Source: a virus. From it: 14,855 nt of DNA. The position numbers were made by a program, and so were the translations under genes. Below, piece after piece: positions 1,825 through 6,382 of this stretch. The stretch lies in UHGV virus genome UHGV-1735138, one strand, 5' to 3'. Each line of letters begins with the position of its first letter. The stretch's first letter is position 1. The notes beneath the pieces were generated by a model. That model was given only the letters and a program-made list of their open reading frames with translations. It had not been told where the DNA came from and did not search any database.

Positions 1825-2393
1825 TAGCGTACCCTCAGCGAACGTTCGCCGCGTTCCAGATGTGCGCCTGGTACCGGGTTTAATAACTCGGCTGGTGGTG
1901 TTTCTCCACGCGCCAGTATTTCGGCGGCAACCGCCTCCGCAGATTCAATCACTTCTTTAATGGCTCGCTTGTTTGGTGTAATAACCGTTTCTACATCAAC
2001 AAGTGACACGCCTTCATACTCATCCGGGATCTTATCTTTGCTATCGATAATTACCCGGATAGCCCCCTGTGCATCAGTAAATGTGTTTTTTGCGGTTTTC
2101 AGTTTATCCAGGCCAGCAGCTTGCAGGCAGGTGAGCATATGCTTCCGAATTGCTTTTTCCTTGCCTTCAAAGGACGTCTTACGGGTAGCCAGGCGAGACA
2201 TTTCTTCAGCGCAGGTACTGGCATTGCCCTGTAAATTGCGGCAGATGACCATCATGGCGTCCAGTTTGTCTCCCAGTTCTCCTTCCATACCTTCAAGCGT
2301 GTCGGCGATCATCTCTGGCGTCAGTTCGTCGGAGGTTTCCAGCAGGTCAATCAGGCTGGCGTATTCTTTTGCAATAGCGATAGCGGTGCTCAT
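1824..2393 (-). CDS. Siphovirus Gp157-family protein (189 aa)
   Basis: DTLEGMEGEL motif and C-terminal PGAHLERGERSLRVR match the Gp157 family pattern as I recall it; sits beside an annealing protein as in Sfi21-like phages; coupled ATGA overlap. Confidence 0.7.
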   Translation of the reverse strand: MSTAIAIAKEYASLIDLLETSDELTPEMIADTLEGMEGELGDKLDAMMVICRNLQGNASTCAEEMSRLATRKTSFEGKEKAIRKHMLTCLQAAGLDKLKTAKNTFTDAQGAIRVIIDSKDKIPDEYEGVSLVDVETVITPNKRAIKEVIESAEAVAAEILARGETPPAELLNPVPGAHLERGERSLRVR

Positions 2394-4606
2394 GCTGTTT
2401 GCTCCTGTGCGGCGGCGAGAGCGGCGAGGCGTTCGGTTTTAATGTCGGTGATACGGCGCAGACGTGATCCCAGATACGATGAATATTCTTTATCACCTTT
2501 GGCTTCCGCTGCTTTCCGGTGTACATCCACCTCGCGGGCGATGAGGCCAAATACCTTGTTTACTTCGTTGGTGGTTACCGCAGCAGACAGTGTGTTGGCA
2601 ACGTTGATAAGCTTCTCATCCAGTTCCTTACGAAGACGGGTGGCGTCTTCCGCATTCTCGCTGGCATTCTTGATATCAAACTCAGCTTTATTCCTCTGGC
2701 GGTATTCCGGATTGTCGTACAGGCCCATGAAAATATCGGCGCTGAATCCGAGAGGGGATAGCGCTTTCTTAACAGCATCCGTCCAGGATTTCTTCGGCGC
2801 TTCGCCGTCGCTTGTTGGTCCGTATTTAGTGTCGTAGATATAAGGTGTGCATCCGTAAGCCTCGGACTCACCACGAACACCATTCAACATGTACCAGACG
2901 CGTACCTTCATGGTGTGATGCATTTCGCTGAGATAGCCGCCTGTGCCATCGGGGATAATTTCCCAGGATAAGAGGCCATCACTTCCTTTCACTTTTCGCA
3001 ATATCGGTGCGCCTTTATCAAAACGCTCTTCCAGCACCTCTACACCCCAGCCAATACCAAACGGTCCAAATTCGCGAGTCGCTTTCATCGCTATATAAGT
3101 GCCGTTGATGGATGTGCCGCCGCCGTTCTGAGAGAAAGCACTCGTGAAGCGCTCATCGGTTTTGAATACGTTCTTCCACAATGCCAGGTTATCCGTGTCG
3201 TCTGAGTCCTTTAACTCCGTTTCGATAGCTGAGATTGCATTCTGCCGCTTGTGCTCTTCGGTATGGATCCGCTCAACCAGCGCGTCAACGTTTTGCACCA
3301 GGTCTTTTACCTGCTCGCTAAGTTTTTCTTGTGGAGGAGTCTCTTCTGCCGGGGTAATAGCTGCAGGTTCCCTCTGAGATACGGCGTTATTTTCAGGTAC
3401 GTCATACACATGGCGAGGCGTGACAAACTGCTCACGCAACTGCTGCAAACTACGTTCTCCAGCATTTGCTGCTTCGCTTTTTTCGACCTGATTTGAGGGT
3501 GTTTCTGACATCATCCCATCAATTGAGAATCGCCCGCCGCCGTGGTTGGTGACTTTTACATCATCCTTTGGTGCTGTTTCCTTTGGCTTCTCTTCAACAG
3601 CATTTGCATCACGCTGCCCGTTAGCTTGCAGCCAGTTGTCGATGTGACTGCGCAGGGATTGCGGGAAGTGGTACGTGTCTTTTGCGGGGGCGCTCTGAAT
3701 AACACCGAATACTGATGCGCGGTCATAGGCAAGGATCTGATCCGTTGTGCGCAAGGCCATTGACCAGCGTTTAAAATCCTCCCGATCCTGGCTGATTATT
3801 TCGTCTGCCGCTTTCAGGACGCTGGGGGTGATTTTTTCCGGGCCAACGGGTAACAGGGCGCAGGCAATTTCACGATCCAGTGTGGCGTGAGTCTGTTGGT
3901 AAGGACGTGCGGATGCTGTTTCTGGTTTTACCTCCGGCAGCATTTCATCGCGTTTACCGGGATTCTCTACCCATTTTTTTATAAATTTGGAGATAGTCCA
4001 ACTGGTCGGGTTTTGTTCCTGGGTATCGCAACTTGCCAAAATTGCATGTACCAGATTATTCAATCCAGCAATATGCATGTACTCGATGGGCTTACACGCC
4101 ACCATGGCATCAAGAACGATGCGGTTAAATGCGTCAACCTCATCCTCACTGTCAGTATCACTGTTGTCGAGCATCTCCAGGTATTCACGCGTCTGCGCAA
4201 GCAATTCACTGTCGACTTCGTTGGCGTCGTGGCTGAACAGCAGAACGGCGGCGAATCGTTCACGAGCCGGCAGTTTCATCAGGTCGTTAACCTGTGCGAT
4301 ATCTGCTGAACCGCTATCTACAACGGGGGTGTTAACTACCCATTTTTCGCCATCAAAACTGTGTTCTGTGGCGAACGTCTCATCAAACTCACCAACGCCT
4401 GGGCGCGGTTGGCCCGGGGCATCTTCCCAGATTTTAGGTTTGAAATAGTTGTCGCCGTGGTCAGGGTAGGCTTCCCACAATTTGCCGATGATGATGTTCT
4501 CGGCAACTTTTTTGTTAGGGGCGTCGATGGCGATGGCCAGCGCCGGGATCGCGCCGTTTTTGAGCGCGCCTTTTTTCGCTTCTAACAAGCCGTTAAAAAT
4601 GGTCAT
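2390..4606 (-). CDS. Rad52/Sak-family single-strand annealing protein with a roughly 490-aa N-terminal extension (738 aa)
   Basis: C-terminal region (about residues 490-640) aligns by eye to the Rad52 N-terminal domain: FGPFGIGWGVEV vs FGYNGWAHSI; VRVWYMLNGVRGESEAYG vs VRVQLKDGSYHEDVGYG; KKSWTDAVKKALSPLGFSADIFMGLYD vs [25 protein letters not shown]. Start preceded by AGGAAAGACC. Confidence 0.8.
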   Translation of the reverse strand: MTIFNGLLEAKKGALKNGAIPALAIAIDAPNKKVAENIIIGKLWEAYPDHGDNYFKPKIWEDAPGQPRPGVGEFDETFATEHSFDGEKWVVNTPVVDSGSADIAQVNDLMKLPARERFAAVLLFSHDANEVDSELLAQTREYLEMLDNSDTDSEDEVDAFNRIVLDAMVACKPIEYMHIAGLNNLVHAILASCDTQEQNPTSWTISKFIKKWVENPGKRDEMLPEVKPETASARPYQQTHATLDREIACALLPVGPEKITPSVLKAADEIISQDREDFKRWSMALRTTDQILAYDRASVFGVIQSAPAKDTYHFPQSLRSHIDNWLQANGQRDANAVEEKPKETAPKDDVKVTNHGGGRFSIDGMMSETPSNQVEKSEAANAGERSLQQLREQFVTPRHVYDVPENNAVSQREPAAITPAEETPPQEKLSEQVKDLVQNVDALVERIHTEEHKRQNAISAIETELKDSDDTDNLALWKNVFKTDERFTSAFSQNGGGTSINGTYIAMKATREFGPFGIGWGVEVLEERFDKGAPILRKVKGSDGLLSWEIIPDGTGGYLSEMHHTMKVRVWYMLNGVRGESEAYGCTPYIYDTKYGPTSDGEAPKKSWTDAVKKALSPLGFSADIFMGLYDNPEYRQRNKAEFDIKNASENAEDATRLRKELDEKLINVANTLSAAVTTNEVNKVFGLIAREVDVHRKAAEAKGDKEYSSYLGSRLRRITDIKTERLAALAAAQEQTA

Positions 4607-4636: not shown

Positions 4637-4966
4637 TTAGTAGGGGAGCTCATCGGTATCTGGCGTGTATTCGATGCAAAGTAACTGCTGGATTTTGTCA
4701 TCGATAGCAGCAATACGCTGTTGGGCGTCGGCGGCTGTATTCTGTTTTTGCTCACGCAGCTGCTCTACCTGTAAACCGATGATGTCGATTGGCTGGGGCT
4801 GGTTGACGGTAATTTCAATTTCGCGGCTTTCCAGAAGGATGTACCTGTCTGGAAAACCTTTAGACATATCTACGGTTGCAACTAAGATTTCCCCAGGACA
4901 GAAAGTTGAGGTTGGGAATGCATAATTTACATATAGCTTTACGGGGATAGTGGTGCGCGCTTCCAT
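4637..4966 (-). CDS. Hypothetical protein, first gene of early-left operon (109 aa)
   Basis: Good Shine-Dalgarno AAGGAG 5 nt upstream of ATG; no family recognised. Confidence 0.6.
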   Translation of the reverse strand: MEARTTIPVKLYVNYAFPTSTFCPGEILVATVDMSKGFPDRYILLESREIEITVNQPQPIDIIGLQVEQLREQKQNTAADAQQRIAAIDDKIQQLLCIEYTPDTDELPY

Positions 4967-5050
4967 AGCGACTCCTTGGTGATGTATACTCGGGACCGAT
5001 CAGCGAATATTGATCAGCTTCCATAGCGTCAGTGTCGTTGGTCTTTCCTC

Positions 5051-5074
5051 ATCACAAGTTTGGTCACTTGTGAT
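5051..5074. promoter_or_regulatory. Perfect inverted repeat ATCACAAGT-N6-ACTTGTGAT upstream of first early-left gene
   Basis: 9-bp arms, 6-bp spacer, about 85 bp upstream of the ATG at 4966. Confidence 0.4.
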
Positions 5075-5212
5075 AAATCCGAATGGTTTGGTCGCCGTTC
5101 GGGGTAACTGGCCCGCCTTGTGCGGGTCTTTTGCTATCTAAAGGGTGCCGGTTACGTTTCCGGCGTCGTTATGTTTCCATCACGACCGTACGGGGCTGGT
5201 CTTTCCTGTTTT

Positions 5213-5227
5213 GAGCTGGTCAGGCTC
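5213..5227 (-). promoter_or_regulatory. Degenerate copy of conserved junction hairpin (loop CUGACCA, stem GAGC/GCUC)
   Basis: Minus-strand reading ATGAGCCTGACCAGCTC...GGAAAGACC mirrors the intact junctions at 7125-7170 and 9561-9602, but no gene follows. Confidence 0.4.
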
Positions 5228-5340
5228 ATGGTCAACGCAGGTCAGGCGTGGTACTTCCTCCGGTCTTTCCCTGGTGTCACGCTGCGGGTTTGGCCTCTCC
5301 TGTTGGGGACTCAGGCACAGCGATAAAACCTGGCTGTGTG

Positions 5341-5369
5341 AAAAAATGGCCCATCGTGCGGACTGGGCA
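5341..5369 (-). terminator. Candidate intrinsic terminator inside the early-left leader
   Basis: On the minus strand a 5-bp stem (GCCCA/UGGGC, 10-nt loop) followed by CA and six U (plus-strand A-run 5341-5346). Confidence 0.3.
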
Positions 5370-5813
5370 AAGACTAAACACAGCAAATTGATGATGGGCG
5401 CCCGGAATCGAACCGGGTAACGGGCAGGGAGTTCCCGTTAAACACCTGTTCACCACAACCGGGAGCGCACTCCGCCATTTCAAAATTTAACGACAAAGCT
5501 CAAAGTTGAGTCGATGAAGTGCGCTCTCGTGTTGTAGCCAGGACTCTTCCCTGGTGGTCACACCGTATCGCCTTGATGGTGAATCAATCGCTCATACCTG
5601 GCTGTGGCTTGCACATTCCGGCTACCTGCTATGGAGACAACGCGTTAAGGCTCCGCTTCCATCCAGACCGCTTCGACACATGTGCCATATGCCGGCGAAG
5701 TCTTTCCCTCTGTCATCGTACTGGCGCCGACGCGCAAAATTTGGTGCCGTCTTTCCGGCTGTCAGAACGTGTTTCTGAACAACTGCCGCTGGGTAAGCGT
5801 TGTTGATGGAATG

Positions 5814-5851: not shown

Positions 5852-5863
5852 TAACAAAAGTTA
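5852..5863. promoter_or_regulatory. Operator-like palindrome TAACAAAAGTTA (left operator)
   Basis: Identical 12-mer occurs at 6371-6382 in the rightward operator region; the flanking GTTAGTATTT is also shared. Confidence 0.45.
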
Positions 5864-5875
5864 GTATTTGGGGTG

Positions 5876-5921
5876 AAAATAAAGGCAATGCATTGAAAAC
5901 ATTGCCTTTATTTTATTTTTT
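5876..5921. terminator. Bidirectional intrinsic terminator downstream of the repressor gene
   Basis: Perfect 15-bp inverted repeat AAAATAAAGGCAATG / CATTGCCTTTATTTT (5876-5890 and 5900-5914), 9-nt loop, then TTTTTT on the plus strand; repressor stop codon lies in the right arm. Confidence 0.7.
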
Positions 5922-6326
5922 GGTGGGGGTTAGTTTCTTTCTGGTAACCAGTAACTCTTCAAATAAACGATTAAAGTTTTCAACTTTATCTTCTAATTCA
6001 ATTAGTTGCTTTTCTTTTTCTGACTCGGGTAATGAATCAAATAACTCTAACAATCTTTTTTGACGTGAATCCAGCTCTGTTGGTAATTCGTCTACCGGAG
6101 TTGGCGCCTGGTCTTCGTCACCAAAAAGCAGCCATGTGGCAGAACACTTAAGTGCATTGGCCAAAGCCAGCAAGTTCTGACCCTTTGGTTCATTTTGTCC
6201 GCTTTCCCATTTAAAAACGCTCACACTCGATCTTCCAACCATATCAGCAAGCTGTTGTTGGGTTAGACCAAGCTGTTTGCGTCTTTGAGATAAACGGTCG
6301 CTAAGCATCAAATTCTTCATCCTCAT
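5913..6326 (-). CDS. Phage repressor, HTH XRE-family, no LexA-like peptidase domain (137 aa)
   Basis: N-terminal LGLTQQQLADMVGRSSVSVFKWESGQNEP is a classic HTH; divergent from the Cro-like gene; C-terminal 70 aa acidic and coiled-coil-like, too short for an S24 domain. Confidence 0.85.
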   Translation of the reverse strand: MRMKNLMLSDRLSQRRKQLGLTQQQLADMVGRSSVSVFKWESGQNEPKGQNLLALANALKCSATWLLFGDEDQAPTPVDELPTELDSRQKRLLELFDSLPESEKEKQLIELEDKVENFNRLFEELLVTRKKLTPTKK

Positions 6327-6331
6327 AATAT

Positions 6332-6382
6332 AAGTTAACTTGACATAACTTTCGTTAGTATTTATGTTGCTAACAAAAGTTA
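6332..6382. promoter_or_regulatory. Right operator region: palindromes AAGTTAACTT (6332-6341), TAACTTTCGTTA (6347-6358), TAACAAAAGTTA (6371-6382)
   Basis: Three TAAC/GTTA palindromic sites between the divergent repressor and cro-like genes, overlapping the pR-like promoter. Confidence 0.5.
6340..6368 (+). promoter_or_regulatory. pR-like promoter (-35 TTGACA 6340-6345, 17-bp spacer, -10 TATGTT 6363-6368)
   Basis: Consensus -35 with correct spacing to a TAnnnT -10, 27 bp upstream of the cro-like start; GGAGGG ribosome-binding site at 6386-6391. Confidence 0.5.

Follow-up and report, generated by a model that had tools for sequence, protein, structure and literature searches.

A conserved phage RNA operon behind an early-left promoter that probably delivers mimics of host small RNA seeds

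What fills the beginning of an early-left operon when no protein gene can be found there? This question is raised by the virus genome UHGV-1735138, of which a stretch of 14,855 nucleotides (nt) was analysed (hereafter called the window). It corresponds to a prophage of lambdoid and E. coli type, integrated beside a tRNA-Ser(CGA) gene at 14-103 (detected by ARAGORN and Rfam). Between its pL-like promoter and its first leftward early gene lie about 840 base pairs (bp), at positions 4967-5813, which an earlier inspection of the letters alone (the sequence-only reading) had taken either for a long structured leader, acting in antitermination or protein sequestration, or for the remains of deleted early genes. 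As this region is flanked by leftward early genes and by a cI-like repressor and plus-strand genes, it is read on the minus strand, from 5813 to 4967.

We describe here, within this region, a pseudoknotted RNA of 168 nt shared by many Enterobacteriaceae phages and prophages (the scaffold), followed by a tRNA-like element and by a copy of the terminal part of the host small RNA (sRNA) RprA. In our view the region is probably a conserved minus-strand phage non-coding RNA operon delivering host-sRNA seed mimics, and neither a set of decayed genes nor a plain leader.

A covarying pseudoknotted RNA downstream of pL

Compared by BLAST with phage genomes, the region matched phage BUCT708 and, through a piece of 100-170 nt (approximately 5694-5523), several unrelated phages. 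The structure of the scaffold, five helices (H1-H5) and a pseudoknot, was derived from 112 distinct sequences. A covariance model of it (R1) recognised a single copy in the window, at 5530-5697 on the minus strand, full length and with all helices intact (138.5 bits, E 4e-38).

An analysis of RNA structure and covariation, suggested as a check by the sequence-only reading, supported a structured RNA, with the scaffold helices 98% paired and the pseudoknot covarying. Among the 112 sequences, G-C alternates with A-U at position 5 of H1 (74 vs 36), C-G with U-A at position 2 of H2 (61 vs 51), and C-G with G-C at position 2 of H4 (83 vs 26). The pseudoknot, in which CACC in the H4 loop pairs with GGUG downstream, is formed in 112/112, with C-G in 90 versus A-U in 22. 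G-U pairs are found in H1 at position 3 (G-U in 62/112) and at position 6 (U-G in 109/112). Since these many G-U pairs would be A-C mismatches on the other strand, the functional strand is the minus strand of the window. In a 31-sequence MAFFT alignment, 98.3% of helix positions were base-paired, compared to 26-48% when the partners were slid, and a model-based alignment of 100 hits gave the same picture (98.2% paired). Pairs changed on both sides numbered 10 in the MAFFT alignment and 10-11 over both alignments; the observed covariation was reached by 0/500 shuffles. The core of the scaffold, 19 nt long, is nearly invariant and single-stranded.

Structure is also maintained in the two leader hairpins that precede the scaffold (Table 1). 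In BUCT708 the first reads GCCCG-GAAAGA-CGGGC, with one base pair more, and the second GCGG-GAAAGA-CUGC, a compensatory A-U to C-G change.

A large RNA family confined to Enterobacteriaceae

The unrelated carriers are uetakeviruses (SPN1S, Tyrion, PAT1 and BUCT554), Klebsiella phages and the P1-like D6 and SJ46. Their matches are intergenic or overlap small hypothetical-protein calls, and they occupy differing genomic places: the gap between terL and the portal gene, pL, the sequence upstream of ban, and the lysis region. The 19-mer GGTAGCCGGAATGTGCAAG was found in at least 120 viral contigs. With a second, independent pattern, 22 Enterobacteriaceae genomes were retrieved in which the 19-mer was unchanged in all but one. 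Altogether, the family comprises more than 150 phage or prophage loci, in Enterobacteriaceae genomes only, and the covariance model recovers 99/99 true loci with 109-165 bits.

In E. coli, 713 records were obtained in 695 of 5426 complete genomes. Plasmids account for 218 of the matches, many of them probably P1-like phage-plasmids. No annotated feature lies under the E. coli scaffold matches, among the 40 matches listed. Of ~450 near-identical E. coli copies, 447 are at least 99% identical over the scaffold, while over the whole 1-kb query the same level of identity is reached by 13 of the 450 only.

No family of Rfam 15 matched the scaffold at gathering or permissive thresholds, in the window and 16 sister loci. 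What came up instead were neighbouring tRNAs and, elsewhere, unrelated C4, isrK and int-alpA hits. The core sequence was not found in the literature searched, and a search for 'RprA-like' was equally empty; nor is the scaffold element described in the Pas-sRNA preprint, the '50 genomes' non-coding RNA paper or the Minerva preprint. The scaffold is thus apparently a large RNA family for which no prior description was found.

Three loci deserve separate mention. L029 carries two scaffold copies on the same strand (3992-4155 and 4799-4960), ~640 nt apart, showing that tandem arrays occur. L152 (JAIIAN010000430.1, labelled 'Bacillota MAG') is a contig of 1.7 kb with a typical enterobacterial scaffold (154.7 bits), probably resulting from contamination or misbinning. 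L151 (Acidovorax) is a chance pattern match without a model hit.

Promoters, tRNAs and terminators around the scaffold

In L008, L039, L119, L137 and L140, the -10 box of a good promoter, often placed just after a terminator, ends 7-8 nt before H1, and the scaffold is therefore the 5' end of the primary transcript in these loci. The same placement can be recognised by eye in L018 and L048, under the threshold of the scan. In the window, the scaffold begins ~125 nt downstream of pL.

Downstream of H5, most loci continue with ACAAC, a long stem GAGAGCAUU / AGUGCUCUC (or compensatory variants) whose variable insert measures 39-97 nt among loci, and then GUUGUGG. In ~35 loci, a bona fide tRNA-Arg(TCT) starts with the four bases GUGG and occupies +165..+241; in other loci GUGG opens different structured inserts, closed by CCACAAC. 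All tRNAs adjacent to the scaffold are co-oriented with it. P1-like phages carry tRNA-Met(CAT) just upstream and the ban helicase gene directly downstream, and L072 has an open reading frame (ORF) after the scaffold. Many scaffold operons end in a short module that combines a single-stranded stretch with a GC hairpin and a U-run.

In the window the long stem, P6, has compensatory sequences in other loci. A conserved single-stranded motif, GUCGUUAAAU(C), is located in its apical part, ~10 nt before the 3' strand (5487-5496, minus strand), and at equivalent positions in many loci; its likeness to boxA is loose only. An rrn-type boxA, TGCTCTTTAACAA, with a small hairpin before it, directly follows the scaffold in L091, and sequences close but not identical to it follow the scaffold in L035 and L048.

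The tRNA-like element (5456-5394) consists of a 7-bp hairpin (5440-5418), a perfect T-arm CCCGG-UUCGAUU-CCGGG (5417-5401) and a weak 4-bp GUGG/CCAU closing stem. It occupies the position of the tRNA-Arg(TCT) of the ~35 sister loci and contains the T-arm consensus GGUUCGAUUCC. A true tRNA or tmRNA at this place was considered and rejected: ARAGORN finds only the tRNA-Ser at 14-103, and the tRNA-Sec model reaches 19.3 vs 47 bits. A conserved mini-ORF (AUG AGA GCA UU...) after H5 was also discarded; it is seen in some loci, and its AUG is absent in the window and many others.

Host small RNA seeds at the end of the operon

The 49 nt that close chromosomal rprA, an annotated gene present in 5424/5426 E. 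coli genomes, are matched by the segment 5386-5338 at 83.7% identity. This segment has the same orientation as rprA, and the shared part covers the seed UGCUGUGU(G/U)UAGUCUUUGCCC, the terminator hairpin and the U-tail. The processed last 47 nt of RprA (RprAproc) co-exist with the full-length RNA and are active alone; published RprA targets are csgD, dgcM, hdeD, ricI and narP (PMC9262595). The 5' 60 nt of rprA have no counterpart in the window, where the tRNA-like element sits in their place, and the copy does not lie at the rprA locus beside ydiL. RprA (RF00034) was the best sub-threshold Rfam hit of the window (37.4 bits, E 0.021).

On the minus strand, 5363-5349 together with CATTTTTT has the form of an intrinsic terminator and is homologous to that of rprA. 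Where the sequence-only reading had a single candidate intrinsic terminator, the scan recognised two terminator-like sites: 5369-5341 on the minus strand and 5110-5135 on the plus strand. A strong terminator is located in BUCT708 at the same place as in the window. The seed UGCUGUGUGUAGUCUU persists in BUCT708 and other phages, whose terminator hairpins are entirely different. A seed kept under changing terminators is the pattern that would be expected if selection acts on the seed.

Among 155 loci, the terminal module carries the RprA seed in 28 and the RybB seed in 32. In the latter, GCCACUGCUUU takes the place of the RprA seed and lies a single nt beyond the CCACAAC frame. The terminal modules of these loci (L020, L024, L025, L030 and others) open with GCCACTGCTTT, followed by a hairpin and a T-run, and lie ~250-275 nt downstream of the scaffold core. 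The 11-mer corresponds to the first 11 nt of the 79-nt rybB; this rybB sequence matched the chromosome at 100% and scored as RybB there. The RybB covariance model gave no hit on the terminal module of L024, because only the 11-nt seed is shared. Where the window has an RprA mimic, these sister phages seem to have a mimic of the RybB seed. Two different envelope-stress sRNA seeds on one platform are the strongest argument for the terminal module as a working seed mimic.

Targeting of the phage's own GGAAAGAC sites by the RprA-like seed was tried as a candidate and rejected, since the duplexes (-8.9 to -10.6 kcal/mol) are weaker than the background mean of the window (-11.7).

Taken together, the proposal of a long structured leader was right in that the region is dense in conserved RNA structure, but it missed that the region also contains discrete RNA modules and an sRNA with its own terminator. 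The region is more than a leader because the modules recur in unrelated phages beside tRNA genes and end in a terminator-bearing sRNA.

A model for seed delivery and the alternative of antitermination

We propose that, once the pL-like promoter is derepressed, one transcript would run through all modules and much of it would stop at the sRNA terminator (5341). Processing of the tRNA type and by RNase E, at the tRNA-like element and the A/U-rich linker, would free an sRNA of ~50 nt. Together with Hfq, this sRNA would apply the RprA seed to host targets such as csgD, dgcM, ricI and hdeD, and envelope-stress and biofilm control would be rewired during induction or infection. Read-through of the terminator would supply the exonuclease, gam-like, xis and int genes. 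The scaffold itself would act as a portable cis-acting leader module placed, according to the phage, ahead of tRNA, sRNA or mRNA cargo. Its likeliest job, and the weakest step of the model, would be to favour the processivity of E. coli RNA polymerase or the stability of the transcript over long untranslated RNA. A cis-acting interaction with the host machinery seems more likely than a simple stabilising hairpin, because the scaffold stands ahead of all cargo types and at the 5' end of the transcript, its core is invariant and single-stranded, and its distribution is limited to Enterobacteriaceae.

A bolder version can be offered tentatively. The scaffold might represent a new host-directed RNA class (a factor-independent modifier of RNA polymerase, a ribozyme or a processing platform) and a universal 5' launch pad for exchangeable cargo, delivering RprA (Rcs) and RybB (sigma-E) seeds to take over Hfq regulons, for example by shutting outer-membrane receptors, curli or conjugation.

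Several points weigh against a seed-delivering RNA operon. The RprA model score is under the Rfam gathering threshold (37 vs 70 bits), which is due to the missing 5' half that activates rpoS. The window terminator is mediocre: its stem core has 5 bp, and CA separates the hairpin from U6. As the tRNA-like element fails tRNA detectors, processing by RNase P/RNase Z at this place is a guess, and transcript ends, processing and Hfq binding are all points that we infer. The second half of the region (5340-4967) is accounted for in descriptive terms only. Concerning the scaffold, its sequence has no similarity to HK022 put, and the terminators that follow it evidently define sRNA 3' ends, which is awkward for a strong antitermination role.

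This last point bears on the alternative of a put-like leader for processive antitermination, in which the scaffold would modify E. coli RNA polymerase and allow it to read through Rho sites and intrinsic terminators, that of the sRNA included, for expression of the exonuclease, gam-like, xis and int genes, the sRNA and tRNA-like parts being passengers. Such a role overlaps with the RNA operon model and does not exclude it; we consider it rather unlikely. It would account for the expression of early-left genes beyond the terminator in the absence of N. Between pL and the first genes there is no N-like gene, the scan found no minus-strand promoter between the terminator and the first gene, and BUCT708, which was isolated as a phage, has a strong terminator at the same place. 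The family is confined to Enterobacteriaceae, and the scaffold is 5'-terminal in several lineages, as is putL in HK022 (PMC9378689). It also precedes mRNAs (ban in P1-like phages, the ORF in L072) and is followed by the boxA TGCTCTTTAACAA in L091 and by close variants in L035 and L048. However, the scaffold model scored at most 5.1 bits over HK022 27500-33500 (nun-PL-cI-PR) and no HK022 match was returned by BLAST. At 168 nt and with its pseudoknot, the scaffold also differs from the two-stem put of ~70 nt. Moreover, each prophage has only a single copy, the pR operon lacks one, and the operon-end terminators must work for the sRNA U-tails.

Absence of coding signal argues against gene decay

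Could the region instead be what remains after small early-left proteins were lost, with ribosome-binding sites and junctions left behind? The sequence-only reading had called the stretch ORF-free, and this was confirmed: 4967-5813 holds no credible ORF, with no Pfam support and no codon periodicity relative to BUCT708. Its longest ORFs have 95, 91 and 88 amino acids (aa) on mixed strands, and searches of the ORFs against Pfam and PHROGs gave no match except one weak PHROG (E=0.02). The latter concerns a plus-strand ORF across the scaffold (5519-5806), which weakly matches phrog_6855 (E 0.02). Small hypothetical proteins are annotated across or abutting the scaffold in L006 (1347-1508), L010 (1256-1507) and L012 (1286-1537). 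All such calls, including the window ORF, are probably spurious ORF calls over an RNA gene. In RefSeq, nothing is annotated at the matching stretch in near-identical prophages and relatives.

BUCT708 (L003, OM816834) and BUCT709 (OM816835), recorded as 'Stenotrophomonas' phages, are syntenic with the window over the immunity and early-left segments and 72% identical; the recorded host looks doubtful. Relative to BUCT708, the 189 mismatches of the region are split 70/63/56 over the codon phases, without periodicity, and 15 of the 19 indels are not multiples of 3. In the neighbouring genes, a third-position excess was observed (471 vs 272 and 218). As a protein-coding gene or a pseudogene, the region therefore failed as judged by codon-phase bias, in-frame indels and protein homologues. 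It was also said to be GC-rich: its GC content (0.54-0.55) is indeed above that of both flanks (0.39-0.45 rightward, ~0.50 leftward), but the enrichment is only modest.

The case for decay rests on a repeated motif. GTCTTTCC occurs 9 times in the whole window, vs 0.50 expected, a number reached by 0/200 shuffles. Five copies had been reported inside the region, and five exact copies are there: those starting at 5041, 5199 and 5263 had been placed correctly, but the last two start at 5700 and 5749, ~10 nt from the positions given. The three copies described as GTCTTTCC-N3-4-TGTCA are present as stated, at 5263, 5700 and 5749. All nine copies are sense-oriented and read GGAAAGAC on the local transcript, and as four of them stand 1-2 nt before the ATG of real genes (starts 1432, 4606, 7168 and 9600), GGAAAGAC is the standard ribosome-binding site of the phage. 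A second motif, CCTGACC(A/T)GC, is located ~15 nt upstream of two GGAAAGAC sites (7132 and 9567, giving the pairs 7132/7158 and 9567/9590) and twice inside the region (5246-5237 and 5224-5215). Both motifs precede real genes elsewhere; in the region, this two-part gene-junction module, CCTGACCAGC plus GGAAAGACC, thus recurs without ORFs, in the ~370 nt after the RprA-like terminator. A decayed gene-junction copy had also been predicted and was recovered at 5050-5036, where GAGGAAAGACCAACG compares with GAGGAAAGACCAATG at the start of the exonuclease gene (4606) and BUCT708 has an ATG. The start context is moreover duplicated, with CGCTATGGAAGC at 5028-5017 and 4970-4959.

Five GGAAAGAC, two CCTGACC(A/T)GC and a duplicated start context without ORFs thus speak for lost genes, as do BUCT708, with an ATG after the last GGAAAGAC motif and an annotated 37-aa ORF nearby, and the SE11-type relatives, in which one extra 74-aa gene (WP_000423305.1) and its flanks are inserted just downstream of pL. 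However, the comparison with relatives that had been suggested as a check revealed no such genes: BUCT708 retains the same non-coding architecture, no ORF of the region has family support, and no relative has intact collinear genes. The idea of gene remains is therefore borne out for the ORF-less junction copies, but not for genes intact in a relative and broken here. In addition, the non-coding stretch is better conserved than the flanking exonuclease and 109-aa genes (72% vs 61% identity to BUCT708) and shows no codon periodicity, and its central 360 nt are covarying RNA modules that are non-coding in unrelated phages as well. Gene decay is largely refuted for 5710-5338, and as an account of the region it is very improbable.

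The same motif could point to a sponge whose repeated GGAAAGA-type loops, each on a hairpin, would sequester CsrA or another RNA-binding protein. GGAAAGAC is indeed displayed in the leader hairpin loops, a similar GGAAGAG loop caps H5, and the motif is over-represented (9 vs 0.5 expected). However, GGA is not enriched in the region (20 vs 15.4 +/- 3.3 in shuffles), so that the protein-sequestering RNA of the sequence-only reading found no support and a CsrB-type sponge, with its dense array of GGA loops, was rejected. Furthermore, only 5-6 sites are found in 850 nt, GGAAAGAC is the ordinary ribosome-binding site of four real genes, and the invariant 19-nt core and the pseudoknot would be left unexplained, all of which makes a sponge hardly credible.

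Least probable of all is an element acting as DNA (an attachment or recombination site, a replication origin or a single-stranded-DNA signal): movement among very different phage contexts and a tRNA-like fragment that could be an attachment-site scar would suit it, but strand-specific G-U pairs, pseudoknot covariation, upstream promoters, downstream terminators and tRNA co-orientation indicate a transcript, and these phages have no known single-stranded-DNA stage.

Second half of the region and genomic setting

The segment 5340-4967 is specific to this prophage lineage and contains the junction copies, a conserved block, hairpins and the decayed start. The block, 68 nt around 5110-5135, is nearly invariant relative to BUCT708. 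Its plus-strand hairpin, opposite to pL transcription, is a possible antisense RNA terminator or insulator; no convincing plus-strand promoter for an RNA ending at 5135 was found in the promoter scan. The second of the two GACCAAA hairpins covaries, with AUCACAAGU/ACUUGUGAU in the window vs CCGUAGGG/CCCUACGG in BUCT708.

Weak partial matches link the junction hairpin CGC-CUGACCA-GCG with H4 (loop UUCACCA) of the scaffold model, at 7120-7143 (+), 9541-9580 (+), 5213-5233 (-) and 5235-5249 (-), none of them significant (E 0.4-9). There is also a resemblance between the GGAAAGA loop and GGAAGAG, the loop of H5. The gene-junction module may be related, in miniature, to the 3' half of the scaffold, or the two may have a common binding partner.

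The pL-like promoter of the sequence-only reading was located at 5857-5830 on the minus strand, with an operator-like repeat, TAACAAAAGTTA, overlapping its -35 box. An identical copy lies in the cI/cro intergenic region (6371-6382), with an inverted partner at 6346-6358. Because TAACAAAAGTTA overlaps the -35 box and recurs between cI and cro, the promoter is read as repressor-controlled; the pattern fits an operator of the repressor and, on this sequence evidence, a genuine pL equivalent. Immediately after the cI-like gene, at 5876-5914, a perfect inverted repeat of 15 nt is flanked on both sides by A- and T-runs and has the appearance of a bidirectional terminator between cI and pL. Further away, an AT-rich segment (11411-14030, GC 0.34-0.43) contains ORFs of 307 aa (phrog_5094) and 339 aa (phrog_8571) of unknown function, possibly a moron (accessory gene) or defence cargo.

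Table 1. Features in and around the region 4967-5813 (window coordinates unless stated otherwise; MFE, minimum free energy)
Feature	Coordinates	Strand or direction	Basis or remark
pL-like sigma-70 promoter TTGTTA-16-TAAAAT	5857-5830	minus	promoter scan and operator overlap
Alternative promoter TGCACA-16-TATATT	5841-5814	minus	promoter scan
Operator-like 12-mer TAACAAAAGTTA	5852-5863		overlaps -35 of pL-like promoter
Site of extra 74-aa gene	L002 3047-3271 (E. coli SE11) vs window ~5790		
Leader hairpin 1, GCCG-GAAAGA-CGGC, one GGAAAGAC copy	5759-5746	minus	BUCT708 comparison
Leader hairpin 2, GAGG-GAAAGA-CUUC, one GGAAAGAC copy	5710-5697	minus	BUCT708 comparison
Pseudoknotted scaffold RNA (168 nt): helices H1-H5, CACC/GGUG pseudoknot, core GGUAGCCGGAAUGUGCAAG	5697-5530	minus	
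P6 long stem GAGAGCGCACU / AGUGCGCUC, variable apical insert	5529-5460	minus	MFE fold
GUUGUGG junction and tRNA-like element	5459-5394	minus	MFE fold, position
RprA(proc)-like sRNA: seed UUGCUGUGUUUAGUCUUUGCC (5386-5366), terminator hairpin (5369-5350), U-run (5346-5341)	5386-5338	minus	
ORF-less junction copies: GGAAAGAC (5270-5263, 5206-5199), CCTGACCTGC (5246-5237), CCTGACCAGC (5224-5215)	within 5199-5279	minus	
Terminator-like hairpin GGCCCGCCTTGTGCGGGTC plus TTTT	5110-5135	plus	terminator scan
Two hairpins with GACCAAA loops	5102-5079 and 5074-5051	minus	centroid fold
Decayed ribosome-binding site and start GAGGAAAGACCAACG	5050-5036	minus	BUCT708 has ATG there
109-aa protein, function unknown	4637-4966	leftward	
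738-aa exonuclease	2390-4606	leftward	
Mu Gam-like / Gp157 protein	1824-2393	leftward	
Excisionase	1217-1432	leftward	
Integrase	189-1217	leftward	
cI-like repressor	5913-6326	minus	
cro-like, YdaT-like, O-like and DnaB-like genes	beyond cI-like repressor	plus	

Significance and comparison with known systems

If the RNA operon model is correct, an RNA family that is under strong constraint and lacks annotation is present in ~13% of complete E. coli genomes, and also in SPN1S, Tyrion, D6, SJ46 and many P1-like phage-plasmids. Exact copies of RprA and RybB seeds at the ends of phage operons suggest a general viral tactic, in which the targeting ends of host sRNAs are mounted on a common platform for expression and processing, and phage reprogramming of host post-transcriptional networks becomes directly testable. 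The invariant 19-nt core and the covarying pseudoknot are a candidate for work on RNA polymerase, RNases, Hfq or catalysis.

GOLLD and ROOL are large, ornate, phage-borne RNAs beside tRNA genes and of unknown function. The scaffold is likewise phage-borne, ornate and tRNA-adjacent, but it is much smaller (168 nt), is found in Enterobacteriaceae only and has no Rfam match. The P1/P7 C4 and P4 CI RNAs are phage regulatory RNAs cut from longer precursors by tRNA-processing enzymes; the present element differs from them by its architecture and has no match to the C4 model. Like HK022 put, a cis-acting antiterminator, the scaffold is an RNA element placed shortly after pL of an N-less lambdoid prophage, and it is 5'-terminal in several relatives. 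Unlike put, to which it has no similarity in sequence or structure, the scaffold also occurs in non-lambdoid phages beside tRNAs.

Prophage RNAs of the Hfq type that plug into core regulons include AgvB, AsxR, DicF, StxS and the Pas sRNAs (PMC4104026, PMC7547250, bioRxiv 10.64898/2026.05.13.724894). In contrast to these RNAs, to none of which an Rfam hit was obtained, the present system is a shared platform of several modules. AgvB and AsxR, as anti-sRNAs, mimic targets and act as sponges, whereas here the sRNA seed itself is copied.

The closest sequence relative is RprA (RF00034), and in particular RprAproc: the last 49 nt, with seed, terminator and U-tail, are 84% identical and in the same orientation. 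The window copy differs by lacking the 5' 60 nt that activate rpoS, by lying away from the rprA locus, and by having a phage promoter and forming part of a polycistronic RNA. For this last arrangement, tRNA-linked sRNAs such as 3'ETS-leuZ offer a parallel. These sRNAs lie directly 3' of a tRNA, end at the operon terminator and are freed by tRNA 3'-end processing. By analogy, the putative sRNA of the window, directly 3' of a tRNA-like element and ending at the operon terminator, would be of the same kind; it differs in being phage-borne and in having a neighbour that is only tRNA-like, from which its release by tRNA 3'-end processing is predicted.

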